Shown here: positions 3,439-22,675 of the stretch, one piece after another | Layout of the letters: each line of letters opens with the position of its first letter | Position numbering within the stretch: the stretch's first letter is position 1 | Assembly (NCBI RefSeq): GCF_000092105.1 | Contig: NC_014148.1 | Coordinates: 780,001 to 812,000, forward strand | Reading direction: 5' to 3' | Length of the DNA stretch: 32,000 bases | Source: Planctopirus limnophila DSM 3776 | GTDB lineage: Bacteria; Planctomycetota; Planctomycetia; Planctomycetales; Planctomycetaceae | Notes under the pieces: generated by a model | Database searches by the model: none | Seen by the model: the letters and a program-made list of their open reading frames with translations, nothing else | Told to the model about the DNA's origin: nothing | Position numbers and translations under genes: made by a program

Positions 3439-4380
3439 ATGAACGGGCTGGTGTACCATGTGGTGAGCGGGCAGGCCTTCTTTTCTGGAATGGTCTTATT
3501 ACTTGCCAGCCTCGCACTCGCACAGGCATCTCGCAAAGCCTGGAAGCGATGGTGGGGGCTGGCGTTTGTGCTGGGGCTGATTCTGGTCGCTGCATCGTCG
3601 ATTGCGATTCCCCTCTGGCTGCTGGTGATCGCGGGGATGGCCACACTGGTCTGGCTGTATTGGCTTCTGCGGGCTGACACATCCCGGCAGAGAGTCGCTG
3701 CTATAATTGCCGCTGTCTTCTGGTTGGCTGTTGCGATCGGAGAGTTGCCGTATCTGTTGATTCCGACACTTCAGCCTGTGGCAAATCGCGGCCTGGCGGT
3801 GATTGGAGATTCCGTCACTGCGGGGATGGGTGGTGAAGATCGATCCGAGACGTGGCCGGCGATCATCGCCAGAAAACATCAACTGCAGGTCCAGGATCTC
3901 TCGCATGTCGGCGAGACAGCGGGGTCGGCACTCAAACGGATCCAGAACTTGGAGATTCAGGCTCCAGTGGTGATGGTCGAGATCGGGGGCAACGACATCC
4001 TCGGCTCCACCAGTTCACAGCAATTCGCAACAGATCTGGATGCGCTGCTCAACGGGCTGAGTGCACCCGGGCGGCAGATCGTGATGTACGAATTGCCTTT
4101 GCCGCCGTTCTATCATGAATTTGGACGCATTCAGCGAAGGCTGGCACACAAGTACCGTGTCCATTTGATTCCACGGAGAATATTCCTGTCGCTGCTCGCA
4201 GATCAGGGGGCCACACTGGATGGCATCCACCTTTCGCAGGCGGGGCATCAACAGATGGCCGAAAGCGTGTGGCAACTGGTGCAGACTGCATACGTCAATG
4301 CAACCAGCGAATCACCAGCTGAGAAACCAGCGATCGATAACACAGAGAAATTGCCCGATGAGGATTCGAACCTCAACTAA
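3439..4380 (+). CDS. Membrane-anchored SGNH/GDSL-family hydrolase
   Basis: The N-terminal ~95 aa are hydrophobic helices (FFSGMVLLLASLALA; WWGLAFVLGLILVAASSIAIPLWLLVIAGMATLVWLYWLL; AAIIAAVFWLAVAIG). The SGNH blocks follow: I VIGDSVTAG, III EIGGNDIL, V DGIHLSQAGH. The last 30 nt overlap tRNA-Gln on the opposite strand. Confidence 0.8.
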   Translation: MNGLVYHVVSGQAFFSGMVLLLASLALAQASRKAWKRWWGLAFVLGLILVAASSIAIPLWLLVIAGMATLVWLYWLLRADTSRQRVAAIIAAVFWLAVAIGELPYLLIPTLQPVANRGLAVIGDSVTAGMGGEDRSETWPAIIARKHQLQVQDLSHVGETAGSALKRIQNLEIQAPVVMVEIGGNDILGSTSSQQFATDLDALLNGLSAPGRQIVMYELPLPPFYHEFGRIQRRLAHKYRVHLIPRRIFLSLLADQGATLDGIHLSQAGHQQMAESVWQLVQTAYVNATSESPAEKPAIDNTEKLPDEDSNLN

Positions 4381-4421
4381 GTGATCCAGAGTCACTCGTG
4401 CTACCATTACACCATCAGGCA
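4351..4421 (-). tRNA. tRNA-Gln (anticodon CUG)
   Basis: The reverse strand reads UGCCUGA-UG-GUGU-AAUGGUA-GCAC-G-AGUGA-CU[CUG]GA-UCACU-UAGU-UGAGG-UUCGAAU-CCUCA-UCGGGCA plus discriminator A. It folds with a 7-bp acceptor stem with U1-A72 (a bacterial tRNA-Gln hallmark), a 4-bp D stem, a 5-bp anticodon stem and a GGUUCGAAUCC T arm. CCA is not encoded. Confidence 0.85.
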
Positions 4422-5035
4422 GTGGCGGAGTTCGCCAGGTGAGGAGTCGGTTTGCAGTTTCAGGTGTCTTCTGAACTTTCAAAAAACATCTTTTTGACGT
4501 GCAAATTGCCGCCTCGACTTAAGTGAGTATAGCCACGGATGGCGAACAGCTAAAGTCAAACTGGGCGATTTTCTTGTTCAGGCTGGGCCGAATCTTGGGG
4601 ATCGAATTTTATCTGCCCGGTCGTCCTTTACACTCTCGATGAAACCTGGGGCGAACCAAAAATTGAAGCCTCAGGGCTGTGTCCTCAGAAATTCGGGCGA
4701 GAGATTGTCAAAACGACAAGATTCTTCGTGAGTTCCACGGGTCGGCATCGATCTTTCATTGGTAGTCAGCCATCTCAATCGTTGGAAGATCGATGTTCGA
4801 TGACGACCACTGGAGCAAAGTGGGAGTACGGGTGGTTCTCCCCAGATTTTCAGGGTTGAGAAGATCAACCAGCCGGGATTTATCACTCTGAACCTTCTCT
4901 GCGGATTTCGAATCCGGCCGAGGTTTTGAAAAAAATACACGACAATTCGGCAAACGTTGCAAGTTTTTCAACAAGATATGTCAAGGCGGGTAGTCTGGGG
5001 TGTTTTTGTTGTCAGCTTTGCAACGAATCAAGTTT

Positions 5036-5051
5036 TGGCACGGGTTCTGCT
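5036..5051 (+). promoter_or_regulatory. Sigma-54 (-24/-12)-like promoter
   Basis: TGGCACGGGTTCTGCT matches TGGCAC-N5-yTGC, with GG and GC at the canonical spacing. It lies in an ORF-poor region, about 165 nt upstream of a + strand terminator-like hairpin. This is a single sequence match with no experimental support. Confidence 0.3.
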
Positions 5052-5214
5052 TAAGTAATTCTTTCGCTGCGGGCTGTGGGGACGGCTTGCAACACGAACG
5101 GTAGAGACAGGCCACGAATCGCTGAGACCAACGGCTCAGCAACGTCTTCGGACAATTCGAGTGCCATGGGAAAGAGGGACGATCAGCGGCTAATGGCCAA
5201 TGATCGGAAATCGC

Positions 5215-5408: not shown

Positions 5409-7055
5409 TTAGGGATTTGAGTTTCCGGGAGAGATCTGCACACCATTGGAACTGGCGTCACTTGTCGCATTGGGATTGCCAGCAGCATCCCCCTGAGGTT
5501 TCTTCAGCCGAACCAGAAGGCACTGTTCGGTCTTGTCTTTGCCAAGATGAACCAGAGCCGGTGCTTCGTCTTTGGTGAGGTTGTAAAGTCCGGTTTCGTA
5601 CACTGTGCTGGTATCCGAACCGACGGTAAACGCCACCTTCTGGGTCTGCATATCGACAGCGCCAGAAATAGGGAGCGTTTTGTTCGTGCTGGAATCAACC
5701 CAGTTACCGCGAATAATGCCGGCTTTGTTCACAGCCAGTTGAACTGAAGTTGTCGAATTGGTCTGCCCACTCATCGAGAGCAAAAAGACACCCAGAGGAA
5801 GCCAATCGCCCTGATTCGTCACGGGAAGCTGACTGCCTGTATTGGCGAGGTTCGAGGCCTGATTGTAGTAATCAGCCGACGTTCCCATATCCTGGTTATT
5901 CACATAGACCTGTCCACCCTGGTAGACAACGTTGTTGCCATAATCGTAGTAGACGGGTGGAACATCGTAGAACCCGCAATAAGGAGCTGCCAAGCCCCAG
6001 GTGGCAGTACTCCAGGCGGCACCAGCGGCCCAACCTGCGGCTGCCCAGGCTCCCGGATGAGCGCCGTACCAGCCAGAGCCGTAATAGTTGTAGTTGTTGA
6101 AACTGTTACGGCATCCATAGGCGGTGGTATACCGTCCAGTGGGCGACATGGGCGTGTAGCCTGAAACAAAGCGGCCAGCGGCGACACCATCGGGCCCTGC
6201 AACAACCCCGCGACCGGCTACTGTTCCATTGGGCCCGCGAACGGCATCGCCAGCCGCTACGGTGCCGTTAGGCCCGACAGCAACTCCGCGAGCTGCTTCA
6301 GTACCGCCCGGCCCTCGGACCGCACCACCCGCAGCGACGCCACCATTCGGTCCAACGGCAATTCCCTGGGCTGCTGCACCTCCATTGGCACCTTCAACAC
6401 CACGGCCAGCGGCAACTCCACCATTGGGGCCTTCAACAGCTCCACGGCCGTAAGTGTTACCGCCCGGCCCAGTGACAGTGGTGCCACTGGCAGTGGTACC
6501 ACGTGGCCCTTCATACGATGCATGATTGACGTCGGCATTGCTGCCGAAACCACCAGAGGAACTGAGTCCATGCATCCCTTCATCGGAAGGGAGTCCGAGA
6601 AAACTGTTCAAAGAACTCCGGGAAGGAGCGCTGCCGTAGCCTCCCAGATCGCCCCGGTTGAAGGAATCGCCGCCAAAGTTTCCACGATCGAAACTTCCAC
6701 CGCCGAGACCTTGGCCACCCACGTTTCCACGATCGAAACTTCCACCGCCCAGACCCTGGCTGCCCATGCCTCCACGGTCAAAGCCACCAGCACCGCCAAA
6801 ACTTCCACTTCCGCCGCCACCGAAGCTGCCGCGATCAAAACTACCTCCGCCGCCAAAACTTCCGCCACCACTGCCTCGATCAAAGCCGCCGCCACCACCG
6901 CCTCGATCAAAGCCGCCGCCACCACCACCGCCAAACCCTCCGCCGCCGCGGAATCCACCACCACCGCCGCCACCAAAGCCACGTGCGTGGCATTCATCCG
7001 CGACCGTCGCGCCAACTACGGCTGCGACGAGACAAACCCAACTGTATCGAATCAT
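5409..7055 (-). CDS. Secreted Gly/Arg/Phe-rich repeat protein with a conserved C-terminal globular domain of unknown function
   Basis: AAGGAA RBS lies before the ATG. The signal-peptide-like N-terminus is MIRYSWVCLVAAVVGATVADECHA. Residues 25-141 are (G)nF(D/N)RG low complexity. Residues ~195-295 are about eight 13-residue GPNG(G/T)VAAG-type repeats. A W/Y/G/A-rich segment follows, then a non-repetitive C-terminal ~200 aa (VYYDYGNNVVYQGGQVYVNNQ ... WLPLGVFLL ... QLAVNKAGIIRGNWVD ... AVDMQTQKVAFTVG). Confidence 0.8.
   Translation of the reverse strand: MIRYSWVCLVAAVVGATVADECHARGFGGGGGGGFRGGGGFGGGGGGGFDRGGGGGGFDRGSGGGSFGGGGSFDRGSFGGGGSGSFGGAGGFDRGGMGSQGLGGGSFDRGNVGGQGLGGGSFDRGNFGGDSFNRGDLGGYGSAPSRSSLNSFLGLPSDEGMHGLSSSGGFGSNADVNHASYEGPRGTTASGTTVTGPGGNTYGRGAVEGPNGGVAAGRGVEGANGGAAAQGIAVGPNGGVAAGGAVRGPGGTEAARGVAVGPNGTVAAGDAVRGPNGTVAGRGVVAGPDGVAAGRFVSGYTPMSPTGRYTTAYGCRNSFNNYNYYGSGWYGAHPGAWAAAGWAAGAAWSTATWGLAAPYCGFYDVPPVYYDYGNNVVYQGGQVYVNNQDMGTSADYYNQASNLANTGSQLPVTNQGDWLPLGVFLLSMSGQTNSTTSVQLAVNKAGIIRGNWVDSSTNKTLPISGAVDMQTQKVAFTVGSDTSTVYETGLYNLTKDEAPALVHLGKDKTEQCLLVRLKKPQGDAAGNPNATSDASSNGVQISPGNSNP
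6678..6767 (-). repeat. 45-bp tandem duplication inside the Gly-rich CDS
   Basis: GTTTCCACGATCGAAACTTCCACCGCC... starts at both 6678 and 6723 (period 45). Each copy encodes GGQGLGGGSFDRGN on the reverse strand. A further 27-bp duplication, CCTCGATCAAAGCCGCCGCCACCACC, lies around 6875-6930. Confidence 0.8.
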
Positions 7056-8094: not shown

Positions 8095-8500
8095 AGCGAC
8101 CCTTGTGTTAAACGATTCAAAATCCCGGGTGATTTTTTTGACAGATGTGCTCTGACATGGCACTTGCGGACATGTTTGCTGGAGCGCAGCCAGTGAGCGG
8201 TTCAATCGGAGCAGGAACCGTTTGCTTTCATTGAATGATGGGAATCACGCTCAGTGACCAATAGTTTACAGAGCGGGGTCACAAAAATGGAATGAATTTC
8301 TCAGAACAGTCATGTGAGTTTTCGCATGCCAGTCGACGGGTCCATACGATCAAGCTAAAACCTAGCTCATCGATTTCAGTGCTGAGTGATCCACTGGAAA
8401 AATACTTCGCCCAAACAACGGATTCTCAGGTTTCCTCCCCACCATTGATGCTTTTTTGCTACAAGTCCCAAGGCGTAGCCAGATTCAGGAGTTTCCCGCG

Positions 8501-9406
8501 TTGACGCGATCTCAACCACTGACTGCCACTACCTTTTCGCTGACAATGCTGACAGTTTTTCTGTGGGCGGGAAATCCAGTAGCGACCAGTTTTTCGACAG
8601 ATGTGCTCCCTCCTGTCGCAGTTTCGGGCATTCGTTTTTTATTGGCCACGATCTTTATGCTGGGATGGTGCGCACTCGAAAGAGCTCCACTGGCACTCAA
8701 AAGCGGACAGTTTCGACCGGTGCTCATCGCAGGAACATTACTGGCCCTGCAGATCTGGACGTTTACTCTCGGCGTCGCCTGGTCGAGTTCGAGCCACTCA
8801 TCGCTGCTGATTAACAGCTACGTTTTTTTTGTGGTGGTCTGCGATCATTTTGTCACTCGCCAGTATCGCCTGGGCTACTATGCCTGGGGCGGCTTCTGGC
8901 TCGCGATGGCAGGAGTCACGGGGTTAATCCTTTCAATCGAAACCAGCGAACCAAAACAAAAGGATCTGCCGACACTGGCTGGTGATCTGGTGACGCTCTT
9001 CAGTGCCTTCCTGTTTGCGGCAAAATTGCTCTACTCGAAACAGGCACTCAAAGTGATTGGTTCGACGCAACTGATCTTCTGGCACGATGTGGTCGCCGTT
9101 GTGCTGTTTGCCCTGCTCAGTTTCAGCACAGAGCATGTCGAATGGCACAAAATCTCGACTTCTGGCTGGTTGGCTCTGGTCTACCAGGGTTTTTTGGTGG
9201 GAGGGCTCTGCTTTGGTTTACAGACATGGCTGCTCAAATGGCACTCTGCATCGCAGATTGCGATCTTCAGCTTTCTTACCCCGCTCATGGGGATTGCACT
9301 CGCCTCAATGCTGAGAGGTGATCAACTGACCCCAGCGATGGGAATCGCCGGTGCCTGTATTGCGATAGGGATCGTGTTCGTTCAACTGGATCAGAAATCA
9401 AGTTGA
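8501..9406 (+). CDS. EamA/DMT-superfamily transporter (about 10 TM helices)
   Basis: The protein is hydrophobic throughout, with two EamA-like halves (WAGNPVATSF ... ; FLTPLMGIALASMLRGDQLT). The track ORF starts at TTG 8456. TTG 8501 has GGAG 9 nt upstream, and ATG 8546 is also possible. Confidence 0.8.
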   Translation: MTRSQPLTATTFSLTMLTVFLWAGNPVATSFSTDVLPPVAVSGIRFLLATIFMLGWCALERAPLALKSGQFRPVLIAGTLLALQIWTFTLGVAWSSSSHSSLLINSYVFFVVVCDHFVTRQYRLGYYAWGGFWLAMAGVTGLILSIETSEPKQKDLPTLAGDLVTLFSAFLFAAKLLYSKQALKVIGSTQLIFWHDVVAVVLFALLSFSTEHVEWHKISTSGWLALVYQGFLVGGLCFGLQTWLLKWHSASQIAIFSFLTPLMGIALASMLRGDQLTPAMGIAGACIAIGIVFVQLDQKSS

Positions 9407-9614
9407 AGTTTCTTCGCCCGTGGCCGTCAATTCAACGCAAAGAGCTTTTGGTCGTGATCACACGGTCGCAAATATTCTGGAAATGAATCCAATCTAATAC
9501 GTTTTCCAGGCAGGACCATCGCATCAACGGTCTGGAAAACATGTTTGCCCAGAGCGGCTGTCTATTACAGACAACTTTGCATGCCTATTGATCTGCGGTG
9601 CGCCAGTAGAATGT

Positions 9615-9772
9615 GTGGCTGGGGTCAAACGTCTTCGTTTGCCCCCAGTTCTTTGGACTTTGATCGTCCCTAGCGAACTGTCTCAACTGTCATGAAGCAT
9701 GTCTTCAGATGCATTTGTGCTGGTGAAGCCAATTGACCAGGGGGCCAATGAGGCATTCGACCCCTGCCACCC
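9615..9772 (+). repeat. Dispersed noncoding repeat, copy A (second copy at 21713-21863)
   Basis: The first 36 nt, GTGGCTGGGGTCAAACGTCTTCGTTTGCCCCCAGTT, differ at one position from copy B. The last 65-66 nt (GATGCATT.GTGCTGGTGAA ... ATTGACCA.GGGGC ... GACCC.TGCCACCC) match at about 55 of 66 hand-aligned columns with one 1-nt indel. The middle is diverged. There is no shared reading frame. Confidence 0.75.
9619..9655 (+). terminator. Terminator-like hairpin at the 5' end of repeat copy A
   Basis: CTGGGGTCAAACG-TCTT-CGTTTGCCCCCAG forms a 13-position stem with one T/C mismatch, followed by TTCTTTG. It is oriented to stop + strand transcription coming from the EamA gene. Confidence 0.5.
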
Positions 9773-14215: not shown

Positions 14216-15526
14216 TTAAATCAAAGATCTGGCTTTGACTTCCAGATAGCGGGAAATGAGCTGGCTGGTCAATGTCTCAGGTGTCGCCTCGATGGCAAAC
14301 AAGCCCATCGCAGTCAGGTCGCGCAGTGTTATGCGGTGTCCCTGTAGAAGATCGGCGGCGGCGGCAATTTCAAAGGCCTGCTGATCTGTTTGCGGCACAC
14401 TTTCAGCCTGTTTCACCAGACTCTCAGGCGAAAGAAAAGCGCAGATCACCAGATGAGGTGAACGCAAACGGCGAAACTGCCGGGCCATCTGCTCCAGATG
14501 GACATCATCGAGGGCATAGGTCAGCACCACAACCAAGGCCCGCTTGCGATACCGACGGCGCAATTCATCGACCATGAGCTGATAATCTGTCGATGTGTAT
14601 TCAGGCTCAATATCGTAGATGTTACGAATGAGCGTATCGATACTTCGCAGCCCACGCACGGGCGGGATCGATGCCTGGACTTTGGATGAACAGGCCAGCA
14701 ACCCGACATGATCCCCCTGCCTGAGAGCTGTGTAGGCCAGCAGCAAGGCGGAGTTCAGAGCACGATCAAAATGCGTGGCGACTCCTTCGGCATGACACAT
14801 TGATCGTCCACTGTCGAGGACTAACACGATCGTCTGATTTTTCTCGATCGTATATTCGCGGGCAATCAACGACTCCTGCCGCGCCGATGCTTTCCAGTCA
14901 ATCGAACGAAATTCGTCTTCGCGGCGATATTCCCGAAGCCGGTCAAAGGCCGAGCCTTTGCCATGCAACCGGGTCATGCGGACTCCACTTTCGGCCAGGC
15001 GGTTCTGCCGGGCGAGCAATTCGACTCCCCGAATGGCCTGCACATCCGGATAAACCTTGGTGGTCATCGGTAAAGGGATCAACCAGTGCAATTGCCAGAA
15101 TCCCCAGGGGGATCGTGCCCGCCAGTGAATCGATTGAAAGGTGACATTTCCACGCCGGGCAGGTGTGAAGTGATAGACCAGCTTCAGCCAACGACCAGGT
15201 GCCAGAGGCACAACAGCCGGTACGCCATCAAACGTTCCCGGATGAGGAGGTTCATCATGCAACTCGGCCTGCCAGCTGGATCTTCCTTTCCAGCGATACT
15301 CAATTGTGATCGGGTTACGGGCTCCGACGCTGAGTACGCGCCCTACTTTTCGATCGATGTCCATCTGGGAAAGTGCCGGGCTGCGAAGCCAATCGATGAT
15401 TGCCAGCAAAATGACAAAAACTGTGGCGCCAGTTCCCAGAGTTGCCCAGGAAGAACTAAAGCACGCCGGGATGTACAGCATCCCGGCTGCGAGAATACTC
15501 AATAGCAATTGAAGCCGGGGTGTCAT
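14216..15526 (-). CDS. DUF58 (vWA-like) protein, MoxR partner
   Basis: Two N-terminal TM helices, the DUF58 signature [23 protein letters not shown], and then a vWA-like segment [10 protein letters not shown]. The start overlaps the moxR stop by 4 nt. Confidence 0.85.
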
Positions 15527-16482
15527 GCCTTCGGTGCCTCGGTGGTTTCGAGAAGATCACCCAAGACGACTTCAATTGTGGAGCCTTCAATTTCCGCTTC
15601 GGGTTCCAGGCGAATGCGATGTCTGAGAATCCAGGGCACGAGCTGTTTAATATCATCGGGCACAACGAAAGTTCTTCCCAGGCAGGCCGCTAAGGCCCGG
15701 GAAGCGACCAACAACCCGACACTGGAACGCGGGCTGGCACCAATCTCGATGGCGGGATGTTGGCGTGTGGCTGTGACGATCCGAACGATGTAATCAATGA
15801 TTGAAGGCTCGACGACAATATCCCGCACGGAGGCTTGCAGACGGAGAATACTCTCATCGTCGAGGACACTTTGGACATCCGACGTATGGATACGCCGAGG
15901 GTCACGTCCTTCGTTGTAGGCATTGAGAATGCCGGCTTCCTGCGCGAATGTGGGGTAGGTCACCAGCATTTTAAAGAGAAAACGATCCAACTGAGCTTCG
16001 GGAAGAGGGTAGGTCCCTTCCTGTTCAATGGGGTTTTGAGTTGCCAGCGTGATAAACGGCCTTGGTAAAGGCATCGTCTGACCATCGACAGTGACCTGAC
16101 ATTCCTGCATGGCTTCGAGCAACGACGCCTGTGTCTTCGCGGGAGCCCGATTGATTTCATCGGCCAGGAGCAGATTGGCGAAGACCGGCCCTTCGCTGAA
16201 GTGAAACCGCCTTTCTTGCAAGTTGTAGACCGAATGCCCAGTCACATCTGATGGCATCAGATCGGGAGTGAACTGAATTCTCGAATACCTACATTTTAAA
16301 ACCCGGCTGATTGTCGTCGCGAGGAGCGTCTTTCCCAGACCGGGCGGCCCTTCAATCAACACGTGACCTTCCGCCAGCAGCGCCACAAAGACCGCTTCGA
16401 TCAGTTCCTCCTGACCCACCACCACTTTGCCCACTTCACGGCGTACGGCACGATAAGCCTCTTCGACCTCTGCTACCGACAT
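15523..16482 (-). CDS. MoxR-family AAA+ ATPase
   Basis: Walker A GPPGLGKT, Walker B LLADEINRAP, and typical MoxR length (319 aa) and C-terminal lid. AGAGAGG RBS. Confidence 0.9.
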   Translation of the reverse strand: MSVAEVEEAYRAVRREVGKVVVGQEELIEAVFVALLAEGHVLIEGPPGLGKTLLATTISRVLKCRYSRIQFTPDLMPSDVTGHSVYNLQERRFHFSEGPVFANLLLADEINRAPAKTQASLLEAMQECQVTVDGQTMPLPRPFITLATQNPIEQEGTYPLPEAQLDRFLFKMLVTYPTFAQEAGILNAYNEGRDPRRIHTSDVQSVLDDESILRLQASVRDIVVEPSIIDYIVRIVTATRQHPAIEIGASPRSSVGLLVASRALAACLGRTFVVPDDIKQLVPWILRHRIRLEPEAEIEGSTIEVVLGDLLETTEAPKA

Positions 16483-16878: not shown

Positions 16879-17238
16879 ATGTTACGTGGTCTGATTCTGA
16901 TCCTCTTTGGCGGCACATTAGGTGCATCTACCATGTGGGGTGCGTTTAACTTTCATCTGGTCTGGACGGAAGATCGCCTGCTGATTGTGCAGCGAAGTGC
17001 TCCCAGCCTGAAAGATACTGTTGCCGATGTGCGTGCCTGGGGCCGGAGTGAATGGCTCAAACATCCGCATCTGACCCGTTCGATGATGGGGGCAGGACAT
17101 AAGAAAGTTATTGAAAAATCACTGCGAAACGAAGCGGGTGATTTTGTGGATCATGCTTTCTCGAATGTCTCCCAGGGAATGACCGGGAAACCCGTCAATT
17201 CGAGTGCCAACATGCTCTCGGCAACCCCCGGGCTCTAG
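16879..17238 (+). CDS. Small single-TM hypothetical protein
   Basis: ATG 16879 follows GCAGGGGG and gives MLRGLILILFGGTLGASTMWGAF, one hydrophobic helix followed by a ~95-aa soluble part. No motif recognised. It lies 101 nt upstream of the kinase-like gene. Confidence 0.4.
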   Translation: MLRGLILILFGGTLGASTMWGAFNFHLVWTEDRLLIVQRSAPSLKDTVADVRAWGRSEWLKHPHLTRSMMGAGHKKVIEKSLRNEAGDFVDHAFSNVSQGMTGKPVNSSANMLSATPGL

Positions 17239-17339
17239 TTGGAAGTTCCCTGCTGCTGGTCAGGCCTGTTCTCTCCACCACAGATTCTGCTCACGACCGG
17301 AAATGGTCCCGATCCGATTGATCAAACGATTTTCTGGCG

Positions 17340-19250
17340 ATGGCGGAGTCTTTCTTCGTGACTGTCACACTGATGCAGAATTCAGCCTCTGAACCATTCG
17401 AAAAGCTGCAGTTGCCAACCAACTCTGGGGTGCCCATGAAATGGTCGGCAACATCTCAACTGATCAGTCAGCTCAAAGAGGGGACGTTGCCACTCCGCGA
17501 GTGGATCTTGAATGGCACTGCGAAAATTGCCAAAAGCGGGCCGCATCGAGTTGTCTATCGAGTGAATTTGAACGACCGTGCGGTGTACATCAAGCAGTAC
17601 CTGACGAATGATCGCAAGTCAAAACTGCGGACCTGGCTTTCGGGAACTAAAGCGGCGCGAGAGCTTTCTGTCCTCCGGGCGATGCAGGCGGCCAATCTCC
17701 CGGTTCCCTTACCACTGGGGATCGGTGAGCCAGTGACATCTCGATCCCGACCAGTCGATACACCAGCAGAAACCTCGACAACATCTGAGCTGAATTTATC
17801 GTTTCTTGATGATCCGCAGAGCAGTTTTCTGGTCTTGGAAGCGATTGAGCCCACCATGTCGCTGGCCAATCTGATGCTGCGCTTCAGCGATGTCATGCAG
17901 TTCGACAAACTCGGCATTCGAGGTCGGCAGCATCTGTGTGTGACAGTGGCTCGCATGGTCGCGCGGCTTCACAAGAATAGGTTTGTGCATCGCGATCTGC
18001 AGGCAGAAAATCTGCTGATTGCTCCCGTTCAAAGTCATGGCCCGATGCGGATGTGGTGGGTCGATTTGAGTGATATCCGCCAGAAGTGGCTGAAGGTTTC
18101 TCCCCAGCAGATTATGCTCAATCTGGCGATGCTGAGGCATTCTCTGCATCGCCATCTTTCCAGTACCGACCAGCTGCGATTTCTCGCGGCTTATCTGACG
18201 GAACTGTCGAATCCTCAAGCAGCTGGCGCTGGAGAGATTTCCGAAGCTGAGCCCTCTGATCCTGCGGCTGTCGGTGATTCTGTCGATTTTCTGATTGCCC
18301 CAAAGCGTAAAAAGCTGAATGAGTTATCGCTGCCCCATAGCCTGCAGATTTCGAAGCCAAAGCTCAAAAACTGGATTGTGCAACTGAAGCAGGTGACGCA
18401 AAGCTATTCTATCCAGGCGTGGAAGAAGGCGGATCGCAAGTGGCGACGCGGAAACCGCCGCCTGCATATCGCTCAAGTGGGTGCACGCTCCGGCCGCTGT
18501 GTCGCGGGTATGGATGCTCAGTTGCTGAGACATCTCACCAGCAAGCCGTCTCAGCTTTTTTCACCTCCTTATCTGGTGCAATCGACCGAAGGGGCGGCTT
18601 TACAAAAAACGGCGATCATTCAGCTTCCCGTTTCCGGTTCGGTGATGCAGGCCGAACTTGTGGCTCGCCCTCTGGTTCGAGATGCTCATGATTCCTGGGC
18701 ACGTCGATCGTGGGAAAACGCCTATGCTCTGATGAGGCGGGGGTTCTCGACACCGGGGCCACTGCTTTATGTGGAGACTGAGACGGAGCAATATCTCGCC
18801 CGGGCTTATCACAATAAACAAAAGACAATCGCGGACTGGATCAGTGATCAGGGGCGGCTCTCGTTCCTGCCACAATCTGATGAAGTTCAGGTGGCCCATC
18901 GAGTTCTGGATACACTCGCCCGGTTGTTTCTATATGGTTTTAAGCCGGAAATCACCGATCTGGAGCAGTTTTTCGTCATCAAGCTGAATGGCCGCGTGTT
19001 GATTGCTCTGGCTGATCCTTCGCGGTTTGAGCAGCGAGAATCGGTGTCTTTCAAGCAGATCGCCGCCTCGCTGCGTGAACTGCACGACGCGACCATCGTG
19101 ATGACCAATCTGCGGACATCCACCTGTGCCCGCTGGCTTAAGCGGGTGGCGTGTAAGCTTCCTCCACTCACGTGGCGCATGCTTATGAGTGAAATCGTTA
19201 AGCAACGTCGCGACCGAATCGAAAATTATCGAAAGTGGCATGCCGCATGA
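17340..19250 (+). CDS. Tandem Kdo/WaaP-like (lipopolysaccharide-kinase family) protein: one kinase-like and one degenerate domain
   Basis: First half: VYIKQY (putative VAIK-type Lys), AARELSVLRAMQAANLPVP, catalytic-loop-like FVHRDLQAENLLI, and WWVDLSD in place of DFG. The second half repeats the layout (ARRSWENAYALMRRGFSTPGPLLYVE ... LARLFLYGFKPEITDLEQFFV ... IALADPSRFE), but the HxD...N and DFG-type residues are replaced. No signal peptide. The start is uncertain (17340, 17373 or 17436). Confidence 0.7.
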   Translation: MAESFFVTVTLMQNSASEPFEKLQLPTNSGVPMKWSATSQLISQLKEGTLPLREWILNGTAKIAKSGPHRVVYRVNLNDRAVYIKQYLTNDRKSKLRTWLSGTKAARELSVLRAMQAANLPVPLPLGIGEPVTSRSRPVDTPAETSTTSELNLSFLDDPQSSFLVLEAIEPTMSLANLMLRFSDVMQFDKLGIRGRQHLCVTVARMVARLHKNRFVHRDLQAENLLIAPVQSHGPMRMWWVDLSDIRQKWLKVSPQQIMLNLAMLRHSLHRHLSSTDQLRFLAAYLTELSNPQAAGAGEISEAEPSDPAAVGDSVDFLIAPKRKKLNELSLPHSLQISKPKLKNWIVQLKQVTQSYSIQAWKKADRKWRRGNRRLHIAQVGARSGRCVAGMDAQLLRHLTSKPSQLFSPPYLVQSTEGAALQKTAIIQLPVSGSVMQAELVARPLVRDAHDSWARRSWENAYALMRRGFSTPGPLLYVETETEQYLARAYHNKQKTIADWISDQGRLSFLPQSDEVQVAHRVLDTLARLFLYGFKPEITDLEQFFVIKLNGRVLIALADPSRFEQRESVSFKQIAASLRELHDATIVMTNLRTSTCARWLKRVACKLPPLTWRMLMSEIVKQRRDRIENYRKWHAA

Positions 19251-20224
19251 TGTGGGAGTGCAGGGCGCTGCAGATCCTGAAGATGGTGATCCTCACTTCA
19301 CTGGTGAGTCGAGAGCCGTTGCGCGAGTGTGCTGCTCATCTTCGCCGATTGGCCGGCAGAGTCCCCACGCGACTATTCGTCGGCTACCTGATGCTGGTCA
19401 TGGTTGCCTGTTCCGGTTGCCAGACTCAACCGAAATACACGGGCCTGCCCCGAAAGACCTCCATCAAAAACGATGGGTTGAAGGTGCTTTCCGATGTCAA
19501 GCTGGCCAAAGACCATGAACTGCTGGTTGACCTCGAAAACCTGAGAGATGAGATCGCGACTGAGTTGAATCTTCCGCCACAAAAGCAACAGGTGGTCGTT
19601 TACCTCTTTGGCTCCGAAGAGCGTTATCGCGACTACATGCGTTCTTCTTTTCCACAGTTGCCACCCCGACGCGCTTACTTTGTGGGTTCGAGTAAAGAGC
19701 TGGCGGTCTATACCTTCTGGGGCGAGCGTGTGCAGGAAGATCTCCGGCATGAATACACGCATGGGATCCTGCATGCCACGCTCAAAGATGTCCCTCTGTG
19801 GCTGGATGAGGGGCTTGCCGAATACTTTGAACTGGCTGGAAAACCCGGACAGATCAATCCCGAGTATGCCTCGCGACTTTCCGAAGCCATTGCCAGCGGC
19901 TGGGAACCGGACATGGCTCGTCTGGAAAGACTCGAAAGCGTGGGGCAGATGCAGCGGAGTGATTATCAGGAAGCGTGGGCCTGGGTTCACTTTATGATGC
20001 ATGATGGCGACGACTCGCGAGCCGTCCTTCTGGGATACTTGAAGACGCTGCAAACCCGGAAAGATGCCGGGAGTCTCGTGGCCCGGCTGCAAGAAGACAT
20101 CCCGTCGTTCAATGTCCGGTTTGCCAGTTATGTGGCGACCATCCGTATGCCGGGTGAAGTTCAGCAGGCCTCAGGAAAACGCCCCGTGATTCAACATGTC
20201 CTGGGCCAGCAGCCTGAAGAATAA
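19235..20224 (+). CDS. DUF1570-like HExxH (MA-clan-like) putative metallopeptidase, probably exported or lipid-anchored
   Basis: HEYTHGILHA followed by LWLDEGLAEYFE, i.e. HExxH plus a downstream Glu, the pattern I associate with DUF1570. A hydrophobic segment with a possible lipobox (LFVGYLMLVMVACSGC) is present. The start is uncertain: ATG 19235 overlaps the kinase-like stop by 16 nt, and ATG 19283 or 19391 are alternatives. Confidence 0.7.
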   Translation: MACRMMWECRALQILKMVILTSLVSREPLRECAAHLRRLAGRVPTRLFVGYLMLVMVACSGCQTQPKYTGLPRKTSIKNDGLKVLSDVKLAKDHELLVDLENLRDEIATELNLPPQKQQVVVYLFGSEERYRDYMRSSFPQLPPRRAYFVGSSKELAVYTFWGERVQEDLRHEYTHGILHATLKDVPLWLDEGLAEYFELAGKPGQINPEYASRLSEAIASGWEPDMARLERLESVGQMQRSDYQEAWAWVHFMMHDGDDSRAVLLGYLKTLQTRKDAGSLVARLQEDIPSFNVRFASYVATIRMPGEVQQASGKRPVIQHVLGQQPEE

Positions 20225-20357
20225 TCCCGGCATGAAAACCTGCTGATTTTCAGAGTTCAGGCGGACTTCGCTCCCGGCAATGCGTCAAGGCCCGATGCAG
20301 AATCGTGAGGTCAGGCGCAAGGCATGCTGATTGCAGTGAGTTGGCGTTGGTGAGATT

Positions 20358-21689
20358 GTGAATTCCACACTCTCCAAGGCGCGAGCAGTTTCTCGATGGA
20401 AAGTTTCAGGCATGCCCGGTCGCAGATGTTTCGATGTCTTTTTTCTGAGCACTCAAGTTCAGTTTTTCAGCAGGCCGTGTGGTGTTCATCTGCTTCGGAA
20501 AATCGGGATGGTGTTCTGTGCGATAGCGATCTGCGGAGTTTTGCTGACTGATCTGCCAGCGAAAGAAGCTGAAAGAACTCTTTCTCGACTGACCGATGCT
20601 GAACAGAAGCTCCTCGATCAAAGCCCTTTCTTCTGCGAAGTCAAGCAACACTTTGGCAAGTGGGATTTGAACCAGAATCAGGAACTCTCCACCGAAGAAA
20701 TCGAGTTGGCGCTGCACAATTCGAACGTCCGGAGTGCACAAGCTGCAGCGGTCACGTCCCTGCGGAGAGCTGTTCGCGGCGACAAGGAACTGGCGCCCCT
20801 TTCACTCGACAAGATCGCCAGAGGTGTCGTTACGAAGCCCACTGCTCAACCAGCTCCTCCCAAGTATCAGTCGATGTTTGAAACGGCCCTCAAGAAGATC
20901 GAAACCACAAAACGCGATCTCTTTGCTGATGGCCCACCCCAACTCGAATCGATCAGCCAGGGACGTCTGGGAGACTGCTTCCTGCTCGTCAGCATGGGAA
21001 CCTGTGCTTATTGCGATCCTGATCGCCTGATGAAGATGATGCAGCAACAACCCGATGGAAAAATCCTCGTCACGTTGGGCAATGGCCGTCAATTGACCAT
21101 TGAAGCACCCACTGATGGAGAAGTGGCCATTGGTGCGACATCTCGGAACACAGGTTGCTGGACAAACACTTATGAGAAGGCTGTCGGTACCGTCATGCTG
21201 GAACGCGCCAGCAAGAAAGGCACCCGACACGTCACTCCACTCAGTCTGATTGGTGTCGGTGGCACACCGAGTGTTCCTCTTGAAATTCTCACTGGCCACA
21301 AAGTGCGCAAGCACAGTTGCCAGCCCTATCGAGAAGCTAAAGATGAGTCAGGCCGCAGTACTGCGGACCTTTCTGCTCTGCGTGAAGATTTGAAACGGGC
21401 TTTTGCCGAAAAGCGACTGGTGGTGGGTGGTTGTGGCCCCAAAGGTTCGCAAACACTCGTTAAAGGGATTTACTACAACCATTCGTATGGTGTCCTCGAA
21501 TATGACGAAGTGACGGACACGGTTCTTTTCTGGAATCCCTTTGGTCACAAATACACCCCCAAAGGTCCCGATGGACTTGAGAACGGCTACACCACGACGA
21601 ATGGAAAGTTCCGTGTCCCATTGAATGAAGCTGTCATGTGGTTCGGCTCCTTCAGCATTGAGACGACCGAAGCAGCACCCGAGATGTGA
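20358..21689 (+). CDS. Calpain-type (peptidase C2-like) cysteine protease with an N-terminal EF-hand
   Basis: Catalytic triad motifs are QGRLGDCFLLVS (Cys codon 20976-20978), NHSYGVLEYD and LFWNPFG. A canonical 12-residue EF-hand loop DLNQNQELSTEE lies at 20664-20699. The likely start is ATG 20508 (MVFCAIAICGVLLTDLPA, signal/anchor-like) rather than 20358. Confidence 0.8.
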   Translation: MNSTLSKARAVSRWKVSGMPGRRCFDVFFLSTQVQFFSRPCGVHLLRKIGMVFCAIAICGVLLTDLPAKEAERTLSRLTDAEQKLLDQSPFFCEVKQHFGKWDLNQNQELSTEEIELALHNSNVRSAQAAAVTSLRRAVRGDKELAPLSLDKIARGVVTKPTAQPAPPKYQSMFETALKKIETTKRDLFADGPPQLESISQGRLGDCFLLVSMGTCAYCDPDRLMKMMQQQPDGKILVTLGNGRQLTIEAPTDGEVAIGATSRNTGCWTNTYEKAVGTVMLERASKKGTRHVTPLSLIGVGGTPSVPLEILTGHKVRKHSCQPYREAKDESGRSTADLSALREDLKRAFAEKRLVVGGCGPKGSQTLVKGIYYNHSYGVLEYDEVTDTVLFWNPFGHKYTPKGPDGLENGYTTTNGKFRVPLNEAVMWFGSFSIETTEAAPEM

Positions 21690-21712
21690 TTGTTCAACAG
21701 GTTCACGACTGG

Positions 21713-21863
21713 GTGGCTGGGGTCAAACGTCCTCGTTTGCCCCCAGTTTGCTTGACGCTGTTTGTTCGTCCCAATTTTCATGGGGATGAACTGGATCGAT
21801 GCATTCGTGCTGGTGAACTCGATTGACCAAGGGGCGGATGAAGACATCCGACCCTTGCCACCC
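21713..21863 (+). repeat. Dispersed noncoding repeat, copy B, flanked by a 33-bp direct repeat
   Basis: See copy A for the alignment. The flanks CCGAAGCAGCACCCGAGATGTGATTGTTCAACA (21667-21699) and CCGAAGCAGCACCCGAAATGTGATCGTTCAACA (21866-21898) are 31/33 identical. The first contains the stop codon of the calpain-like gene. Confidence 0.75.
21717..21753 (+). terminator. Terminator-like hairpin at the 5' end of repeat copy B (probable terminator of the calpain-like gene)
   Basis: CTGGGGTCAAACG-TCCT-CGTTTGCCCCCAG followed by TTTGCTT, starting 28 nt after the stop at 21689. Confidence 0.55.
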
Positions 21864-21991
21864 TGCCGAAGCAGCACCCGAAATGTGATCGTTCAACACG
21901 ATCCCGAAATCATCCTCAAAAACGATGATTGATCGAGGTACAGCTCTTAGCTGGTGATCGACTTACATCGGCCTGATCGTAAGTCAAATGG

Positions 21992-22675
21992 CTACTTTTT
22001 GGGTTCTTCCGGGGCCGGAGTGGTTGGTGGAGTCTTGAGATCCTTGATGATTTTCAGCTCAGGCCTGCTGACTTGAAGCTCTTGAAGATCAGCATCGGAG
22101 ACTTCTGTCTGCCACAAATAGAGCCTTTGTAACTTCGGAAGTTTTGCTAACCCCTTCACCCCGGCACCTGTCACCTTTGTTCCGTAGAGATTCAGATACT
22201 CGAGCTTTTCGAGCCCAGAAAGATGGGCCAGTCCGGCATCAGTGATCGCCGTCTTTTCCAGATGAAGTTTCAGCAGGTTTTTGAGCGTACCGACATGCAC
22301 GAGACCGGCATCGGTAATTTTGGTTCCACGGAGATTCAGAATCGCGACTTCGGGTAAGCCTGGGAGTAATGCCAACTGCTCATCGGTGACGGGTTGATCT
22401 GAGAGGTGAAAACTGACATCCAGCCGGGCATCCGTCTGAGCGAGTGCCAGCACCTGGCCCCCCTTTGATTTCACCTGAGCGATCACCTGCTTATGAGCCT
22501 CTGTGTAGGTGACTGGCTTTACGGTTGTCGCAGGAGTTCCCTCAGCCCCAATGGAGATGAAAGGGTTGGACCAGATGAACGTGGTCAATAGACCCAGGAA
22601 TCCCATACGAGCGACCACCGCAAGGCTTTGAACTTCAGGACGCATAGCCATCGTGAACTCCGCAATCATCGTCAA
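21992..22675 (-). CDS. Leucine-rich-repeat protein with an N-terminal hydrophobic anchor
   Basis: About five ~24-residue repeats of the form L..L.L..T.(I/V)TDAGL..L..L (e.g. LNLRGTKITDAGLVHVGTLKNLLKLHLEKTAITDAGLAHLSGLEKLEYLNLYGTKVTGAGVKGL). The N-terminal hydrophobic stretch is MGFLGLLTTFIWSNPFISIGA. The start is uncertain. Confidence 0.75.
   Translation of the reverse strand: MTMIAEFTMAMRPEVQSLAVVARMGFLGLLTTFIWSNPFISIGAEGTPATTVKPVTYTEAHKQVIAQVKSKGGQVLALAQTDARLDVSFHLSDQPVTDEQLALLPGLPEVAILNLRGTKITDAGLVHVGTLKNLLKLHLEKTAITDAGLAHLSGLEKLEYLNLYGTKVTGAGVKGLAKLPKLQRLYLWQTEVSDADLQELQVSRPELKIIKDLKTPPTTPAPEEPKK

Follow-up and report, generated by a model that had tools for sequence, protein, structure and literature searches.

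Which genes belong together in a string of four that encodes a small membrane protein, a kinase, a DUF1570 protein and a calpain-like protein in the planctomycete Planctopirus limnophila, and what could such a unit do? The genes lie on the plus strand of the 32,000-nucleotide stretch that we analysed (strain DSM 3776, NC_014148.1, positions 780,001-812,000; called here the window, to which all coordinates refer unless another locus is named). A first-pass annotation, made from the DNA letters, had proposed that the four act together as one phospho/Ca2+-linked proteolysis module. All four open reading frames (ORFs) were confirmed, as were the divergent moxR gene that it had described on their left and the convergent gene on their right. 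Because the calpain gene was found adjacent to the others in Planctopirus only, while the other three genes recur together, a four-gene module is not supported and a three-gene unit is. We consider it probable, with some reservation, that this three-gene unit is a trans-membrane module that modifies an envelope glycoconjugate, and that the calpain gene is merely its neighbour.

On the evidence of gene order, the conserved unit consists of a small bitopic protein, a WaaP-like kinase and DUF1570. The set was found across Planctomycetaceae, Isosphaeraceae and many metagenomic lineages, with intergenic distances of at most 136 nucleotides that were often negative. A genome scan with the kinase alignment yielded at least 10 loci. 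The kinase gene was followed by the DUF1570 gene in Planctopirus, in its nearest relative outside the genus (L002, with 64% identity to the window's protein for the kinase and 84% for DUF1570), in Paludisphaera (L003) and in loci L005, L009, L010 and L011. The order was still kept when the kinase shared only 23-27% identity with that of the window, as in Paludisphaera borealis, an Isosphaeraceae metagenome-assembled genome (MAG), two Planctomycetaceae MAGs and ENA metagenome contigs; the DUF1570 protein encoded directly downstream was 36-55% identical to the window's, and every other flanking gene differed. A metagenome scan anchored on DUF1570 returned 80 loci, 64 of them informative for the upstream gene. 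The kinase was directly upstream of DUF1570, or fused to it, in 31 of these 64, and 9 of the 33 kinase-less loci had the small protein directly upstream of DUF1570. When the informative loci were grouped at 70% identity, the resulting 48 DUF1570 lineages comprised 20 with an adjacent kinase, 2 with a fused one, 7 with the small protein only and 19 with neither. The neighbourhood conservation that the first-pass annotation had set as its test was found for the first three genes, while calpain adjacency was limited to Planctopirus. No conserved downstream partner emerged; the candidates seen there (HtrA-like, RNase III and CoaBC genes) were each present in a few related loci. As a separate observation, the kinase-DUF1570 pair of L009, a Planctomycetaceae MAG, is preceded by a gene (8132-9400 of that locus) for a 422-residue ABC-transporter ATPase with a C-terminal extension, which could be a glycan-export (Wzt-like) ATPase.

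The kinase matched the Pfam Kdo family (PF06293) with 64.9 bits, against a gathering threshold of 21.3 (E 9e-18), in two stretches, and no transmembrane segment was found in it. Compared as a family profile, it was closest to Pseudomonas aeruginosa WaaP (6dfl_A, E 2.6e-22), the best protein kinase being TP53RK/Bud32 (7e-9); searches of the PDB with the single sequence gave only weak protein-kinase matches. WaaP 6dfl_A was also the best Foldseek match (E 1.3e-11, target TM-score 0.65) of an AlphaFold model with a predicted local distance difference test score (pLDDT) of 69, which rose to about 75-90 in the domain cores. When the two halves of the family alignment, N-terminal and C-terminal, were compared with HHalign, they matched with a probability of 99.5% (E 9e-23). 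The kinase thus contains the fold twice, through internal duplication, with one copy at about residues 31-295 and the other at about residues 340-636. A word-indexed homology search returned 7 kinase matches, which understated the size of the family; an exhaustive search found thousands, and 1458 representatives at E <= 1e-30.

In the N-terminal copy, whose catalytic residues are intact, K85 (the catalytic Lys), E108 (the alphaC Glu), D219, N224 and D242 (the Mg-binding Asp) were invariant across about 148 representatives, and H217 was present in 144 of 148. The C-terminal copy also keeps its catalytic residues across most of the family (Lys in 116, His in 133, Asp in 116 and Asn in 119 of 148 representatives), and the ancestor appears to have been a double kinase. 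In the protein of the window these four residues are replaced by Gln, Pro, Ile and Gln, respectively, and the C-terminal copy, degenerate in the Planctopirus lineage, is a predicted pseudokinase. The pair of Kdo/WaaP-like folds, one kinase and one pseudokinase, that had been read from this gene in the first-pass annotation is thus correct for the Planctopirus lineage. A role in anti-phage defence was considered and rejected, since PADLOC gave only generic kinase catalytic-loop matches, of 22.6 bits or less.

Gene fusions provided further information on the context of the kinase. In eight metagenome loci, which fall into two 70%-identity DUF1570 clusters, kinase and DUF1570 form a single ORF. 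Fusions were also sought among the top 150 kinase representatives. Full tandem kinase-DUF1570 fusions of 802-880 residues were found there in four independent 50%-identity clusters (P0274, P0282, P0288 and P0310), and two other proteins (P0325 and P0370, with 856 and 861 residues) had a GT1 glycosyltransferase fused to the N-terminal side of the tandem kinase. In the eight fusion ORFs of the metagenome loci the lipoprotein signal segment (...LLGAGC, e.g. AAVWLLVLSLLGAGC) is kept between the two domains as a transmembrane helix. This implies a chain in which a predicted cytoplasmic kinase would be connected, through the helix, to a periplasmic peptidase domain; such single-chain versions occur in marine lineages.

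A link with glycosyltransferases was also apparent from the neighbouring genes. Many relatives of the kinase have a GT1 or GT4 gene directly upstream, either with DUF1570 downstream (L003, L075, L076, L077, L087 and L094) or without it (L012, L013, L015, L016 and L017). GT1 was the commonest family among the upstream neighbours of the kinase (11 of 52), which also included one GT9 heptosyltransferase. The order of glycosyltransferase followed by kinase resembles that of waaG-waaP clusters. Given that WaaP is the closest match of the kinase and that glycosyltransferases adjoin, or are fused to, relatives of this kinase, the link between protein phosphorylation and proteolysis that had been proposed for this locus is not favoured.

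The DUF1570 protein matched PF07607 with 25.9 bits, for a cut-off of 22, and gave a weak Peptidase_MA_2 match as well. Its lipobox Gly-Cys, its HExxH motif and the WLDEGLAEYFE segment were invariant in each of two homologue alignments (20 and 46 sequences), which bore out the first-pass description of a DUF1570-like HEYTH...EGLAEYFE protein with a lipobox-like N-terminus. A homologue search found 3093 proteins, and most among the matches listed carry a precomputed PF07607 assignment. The AlphaFold model, a confident one (pLDDT 85.7), was aligned by Foldseek to the M9 collagenases of Grimontia and Vibrio and to ColG, ColH and ColT with a probability of 1.0 (E 7e-8 to 3.5e-5) and TM-scores of 0.53-0.58 over about 270 columns, M4 and M1 gluzincins being far behind. 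Searches of PDB sequences gave no match, either with the single protein or with the family profile at E up to 10, and there was no match to Pfam Peptidase_M9. Because the predicted fold matches M9 but the sequence gives no link to it, we regard DUF1570 as a putative lipoprotein gluzincin of clan MA(E), predicted to be periplasmic, with an M9-like fold but not a member of M9. A full-text literature search on DUF1570 returned no functional work and one incidental mention.

The small protein has an N-terminal transmembrane helix, which follows basic residues and agrees with its first description as a single-TM protein, and a conserved domain of about 60 residues with the motif K..D.Y.D.R.W....W..HP.L. 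In more than 20 loci a homologue was encoded either ahead of the kinase or immediately before DUF1570, and in kinase-less loci the gene often overlaps the start of DUF1570 by 1-4 nucleotides. No Pfam, NCBIfam or PADLOC match was found. The protein represents a genuine conserved family.

The calpain-like protein matched Peptidase_C2 (PF00648) marginally (24.0 bits for a cut-off of 23.8); 90 of 90 homologues also matched, the best with an E value of 1.5e-12. Two residues of the catalytic triad, C207 and H375, were present in 96 of 96 family members, and N393 in 94 of 96. A hydrophobic signal anchor or transmembrane segment (about residues 45-67) precedes the protease domain. The predicted EF-hand loop (residues 103-115) fits PROSITE PS00018, as it does in 81 of 97 family members (consensus DxDxDGxLSxxEI). 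Pfam EF-hand models did not match the protein of the window, and EF-hand_6 matched 32 of 90 homologues. The domain calls of the first-pass annotation were thus all recovered by profile searches, Kdo, DUF1570 and Peptidase_C2 by Pfam and the EF-hand by PROSITE. Features of classical calpains were not found: there was no Calpain_III (CIII/C2L) and no penta-EF-hand match, and the single N-terminal EF-hand loop was the only one. A single-sequence search against the PDB gave nothing. The family comprises roughly 100 clusters, from Planctomycetota and at least one Fimbriimonadaceae record.

Adjacency of the calpain gene to the unit was observed only in the Planctopirus loci, that is in the window, in L001 and in the P. 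hydrillae JC280 contig L008. Of the loci anchored on DUF1570, 53 had 1.5 kb or more of sequence downstream, and a hidden Markov model built from 96 homologues detected calpain in none of them. In L002, the 550 nucleotides available downstream of DUF1570 contained neither a calpain N-terminus nor an EF-hand, and the loci from L003 to L017 that are anchored on the kinase and lie outside Planctopirus had no calpain either. Conversely, four calpain homologues (69, 65, 64 and 58% identity) each have different, unrelated gene surroundings, and neither the kinase nor DUF1570 occurs in any of these. On these genomic grounds, the calpain gene is a genus-specific neighbour outside the conserved unit and presumably functions independently of the adjacent genes. 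A connection of Ca2+ to the kinase/DUF1570 pair is not supported. In L001, a 95%-identical relative from a Logan assembly, we also observed that the calpain ORF is split near residue 185 into two overlapping ORFs (3835-5141 of that locus), the three upstream genes being intact; this is either a frameshift or pseudogene, or an assembly error.

The model that we favour for the three-gene unit is the following. At the inner face of the cytoplasmic membrane, the cytoplasmic kinase would transfer phosphate to a sugar of an envelope glycoconjugate that is linked to a lipid, the most plausible acceptor being, by analogy with WaaP, the core of lipopolysaccharide (LPS). In P. aeruginosa, WaaP phosphorylates a core sugar, and core phosphates are required for the completion and export of LPS (PMC3147165; PMC6147952). 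The N-terminal copy would be the active one in Planctopirus and the C-terminal copy would serve as a scaffold, while both copies look active in most family members. DUF1570, as a zinc hydrolase anchored on the periplasmic side, would act in the pathway of the kinase, with either the exported product or an envelope protein as its substrate. As for the small bitopic protein, it would probably be a periplasmic partner or regulator of DUF1570 that tethers the trans-membrane assembly. It is also conceivable, though in our opinion unlikely, that the unit is a hitherto unrecognised trans-envelope machine of Planctomycetota, in which cytoplasmic phosphorylation of an LPS-core-like glycolipid (or of a protein) is physically coupled to periplasmic proteolysis. 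If true, this would be a new way to link the assembly of envelope glycoconjugates with extracytoplasmic processing or quality control.

Several observations weigh against a role in glycoconjugate modification. The window contains no glycosyltransferase beside the unit, its left neighbour being MoxR, and it is not obvious what substrate a sugar kinase in the cytoplasm could share with a peptidase in the periplasm. About half of the DUF1570 lineages, including that of Schlesneria (60% identity), lack an adjacent kinase, and because of this the coupling between the two has to be considered as facultative. Nor is the kinase orthologous to WaaP: its score was 35.2 bits with the NCBIfam RfaP equivalog NF011703, for which the cut-off is 170, and it has an asparagine of the protein-kinase type (N224, 148 of 148 representatives) where WaaP has His168. 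In P. aeruginosa WaaP, the second Mg2+ is coordinated by this histidine, which takes over the role that Asn has in protein kinases (PMC6147952). Finally, the kinase model is of moderate quality, and the resemblance of DUF1570 to M9 comes from the predicted fold alone.

The asparagine is also one of the arguments for a role in signalling, in which the protein would be a protein kinase/pseudokinase, DUF1570 a periplasmic sensor or effector protease, and the small protein the element that couples them, in the manner of eukaryotic-type Ser/Thr receptor kinases. The fusions, with their cytoplasmic kinase, transmembrane helix and periplasmic domain, resemble the architecture of receptor kinases, the structural matches that come next after WaaP are Bud32/PRPK and eukaryotic-type protein kinases, and kinase-pseudokinase tandems are typical among signalling proteins. 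We nevertheless find a signalling role rather doubtful, since WaaP is clearly the best match by both profile and fold, and the adjacency of GT1 and the GT1-kinase fusions point toward glycan chemistry. Moreover, the second kinase copy is catalytically intact, and not regulatory, in most family members, and the invariant HExxH...E of DUF1570 argues that it is an enzyme rather than a ligand sensor. That kinase and DUF1570 are adjacent merely through inherited synteny, with no functional link, could be suggested by the many DUF1570 lineages that lack the kinase. This is hardly credible, as the adjacency persists down to a kinase identity of about 24% with all flanking genes changed, and as fusions arose in independent lineages (the two 70%-identity DUF1570 clusters and the four 50%-identity representatives).

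The same comparisons bear on the calpain gene. The idea that the EF-hand calpain gene and the other three make up a single phospho/Ca2+-linked proteolysis module agrees with their common strand, with the lack of a predicted intrinsic terminator between the DUF1570 and calpain genes and with the persistence of the arrangement in the three Planctopirus-level sequences. It is made very improbable by the absence of calpain from the other DUF1570- and kinase-anchored loci and by the unrelated contexts of the four calpain homologues. In addition, a gap of 133-187 nucleotides precedes the calpain gene, as opposed to the overlaps within the core unit, and in L001 the calpain ORF is split beside three intact genes. 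A more restricted proposal is that in Planctopirus alone the calpain gene is transcribed by read-through of the operon before it and has been co-opted for the same envelope process. The shared strand and the missing terminator would allow it, and an extracytoplasmic location is predicted for DUF1570 as well as for the calpain-like protein. It lacks comparative support, however, and an adjacency that is so shallow phylogenetically could be plain synteny by descent; we therefore hold it to be improbable, if less so than the full four-gene module. A promoter and terminator scan gave counts no better than those for shuffled sequence and so says nothing on operon structure.

Each component of the locus belongs to a known superfamily, and comparison with the known systems delineates what is particular to it. 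The LPS core heptose(I) kinase WaaP/RfaP (P. aeruginosa, 6DFL), to which the kinase of the window is closest by profile and structure, shares with it the catalytic Lys, Glu, HRD and DxG residues. The presence of two kinase copies parallels the multiple Kdo-family core kinases of E. coli (WaaP/WaaY) and P. aeruginosa (WaaP/WapP/WapQ) (PMC3147165). Unlike WaaP, however, kinases of the window type are single polypeptides of 550-640 residues with two fused kinase folds, in addition to having Asn for His168, a score far under the equivalog cut-off and, in Planctopirus, a degenerate second copy. Unlike what is seen in waa clusters, they are coupled or fused to a putatively periplasmic metallopeptidase-like lipoprotein and coupled to a small bitopic protein. 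DUF1570 shares with the peptidase domains of M9 collagenases (ColG, ColH, ColT and those of Vibrio and Grimontia) the gluzincin fold, by prediction, and the HExxH motif with a downstream Glu. It differs from them in its identity of only 11-17%, with no match at the sequence level, and in being a stand-alone lipoprotein domain of about 260 residues, without activator, PKD or collagen-binding domain.

The kinase-DUF1570 fusions are like PknB/PrkC-type receptor Ser/Thr kinases in that a cytoplasmic kinase, one transmembrane helix and an extracytoplasmic domain would follow one another. They differ in belonging to the Kdo/WaaP branch rather than to Pkinase and in carrying, as outer domain, a predicted active zinc hydrolase in place of a PASTA-type sensor; kinase and DUF1570 are, furthermore, separate genes in the window. 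As to the calpain-like protein, it has the papain-like core and the Cys/His/Asn triad of bacterial C2 calpain homologues such as Tpr of Porphyromonas gingivalis, and it is signal-anchored, as some of these are, the homologues concerned being signal-anchored or secreted. It is unlike the surveyed bacterial calpains in having an EF-hand loop on the N-terminal side of the protease core, with no CIII/C2L and no C-terminal penta-EF-hand domain. The survey of Rawlings (2015) concluded that EF-hands are missing from all bacterial calpain homologues (PMC4631099), and the present EF-hand-bearing family qualifies this published conclusion.

The positions of the features are listed in the table. The start of the small protein was placed at the ATG that is conserved among homologues, the longest ORF beginning at a TTG (16858). 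For DUF1570, the first-pass annotation had used an ATG at 19235, with a 16-nucleotide overlap with the kinase gene. This codon is in fact a GTG. An ATG in the same frame lies at 19247 and gives a 4-nucleotide overlap (ATGA) with the end of the kinase gene, whose stop codon is the TGA at 19248-19250. In close relatives gene callers choose the start of the latter type, which leads to 325-residue products. The start of the calpain gene at ATG 20412 is supported by a near-invariant Met19 in the family and by a 93%-identical homologue of 425 residues. The gap of 133 nucleotides reported before this gene holds for the GTG start at 20358; because the start is most probably ATG 20412, the gap between DUF1570 and calpain amounts to about 187 nucleotides.

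Table. Positions of the features of the unit and of the calpain-like gene in the window.
Feature	Position	Strand	Remarks
Small bitopic membrane protein	16879..17238	+	119 residues; first gene of the conserved unit
Tandem WaaP/Kdo-like kinase, cytoplasmic	17340..19250	+	636 residues; Pfam Kdo
Catalytic loop HRDLQAEN of the N-terminal kinase copy	17988..18011	+	H217, D219 and N224 invariant in one family alignment; Asp and Asn in 148 of 148 representatives
DUF1570 lipoprotein	19247..20224 (alternative 19235)	+	325 residues from ATG 19247; Pfam DUF1570
DUF1570 lipobox Gly-Cys (G61-C62, numbering of the 329-residue ORF)	19415..19420	+	Invariant among homologues
DUF1570 predicted zinc-binding/catalytic motif HEYTH...WLDEGLAEYFE	19748..19831	+	H172, E173, H176 and W189-E199 invariant
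Signal-anchored EF-hand and calpain-fold (C2) cysteine protease	20412..21689 (alternative GTG 20358)	+	Peptidase_C2
EF-hand Ca2+-binding loop DLNQNQELSTEEI (predicted)	20664..20702	+	PROSITE PS00018 match
Hairpin-forming MITE-like insertion at the calpain 3' end	21690..21865	.	Absent at this site in L008 and L001

On the left, the unit is bounded by a divergent MoxR gene (15523-16482, minus strand) associated with DUF58, and on the right, beyond the calpain gene, by a convergent leucine-rich repeat (LRR) gene (21992-22675, minus strand). The P. hydrillae contig is collinear with the window (DUF58-MoxR, then small protein-kinase-DUF1570-calpain, then LRR-SucB), with 90-99% amino acid identity. 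The genes for the MoxR AAA+ ATPase and the DUF58/vWA protein (14216-16482, minus strand) overlap by 4 nucleotides and form a divergent operon unrelated to the unit; their pairing is typical. The only Rfam match in the window was a tRNA gene (4351-4421, minus strand, 63 bits). The segment 6001-7000, inside an ORF on the minus strand (5409-7055), has a GC peak of 0.63 and a GC skew of -0.215.

The 3' end of the calpain gene carries an insertion of about 199 nucleotides, which was not present in P. hydrillae or L001. It is flanked by a 42-nucleotide direct repeat (21667-21708 and 21866-21907) that duplicates the last codons and the stop codon of the calpain gene, and its inner part of about 160 nucleotides forms a long hairpin (fold z-score -3.66). 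Diverged copies were found at 9609-9772 of the window and, in P. hydrillae, in the intergenic region between the MoxR and small-protein genes (L008, 2471-2636). The insertion looks like a mobile repeat of Planctopirus akin to miniature inverted-repeat transposable elements (MITE-like). The first-pass annotation had reported a terminator-bearing repeat at this place; the repeat exists, and no intrinsic terminator was predicted in it.

Literature searches on DUF1570 and on WaaP/LPS kinases in Planctomycetes found nothing relevant, and an association between a tandem WaaP-like kinase, a predicted DUF1570 gluzincin and a small bitopic protein appears to be undescribed in the searchable literature. 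DUF1570 is a large family in Planctomycetota, with more than 3000 90%-identity clusters in this subfamily alone. Adjacency, and fusions on both sides of the kinase, tie it to a WaaP-like kinase and to GT1 and thereby give it a testable context, the biogenesis of envelope glycoconjugates. The envelope and LPS of planctomycetes are poorly understood, and the putative membrane-spanning kinase-peptidase pair thus offers a concrete genetic target in Planctopirus limnophila.

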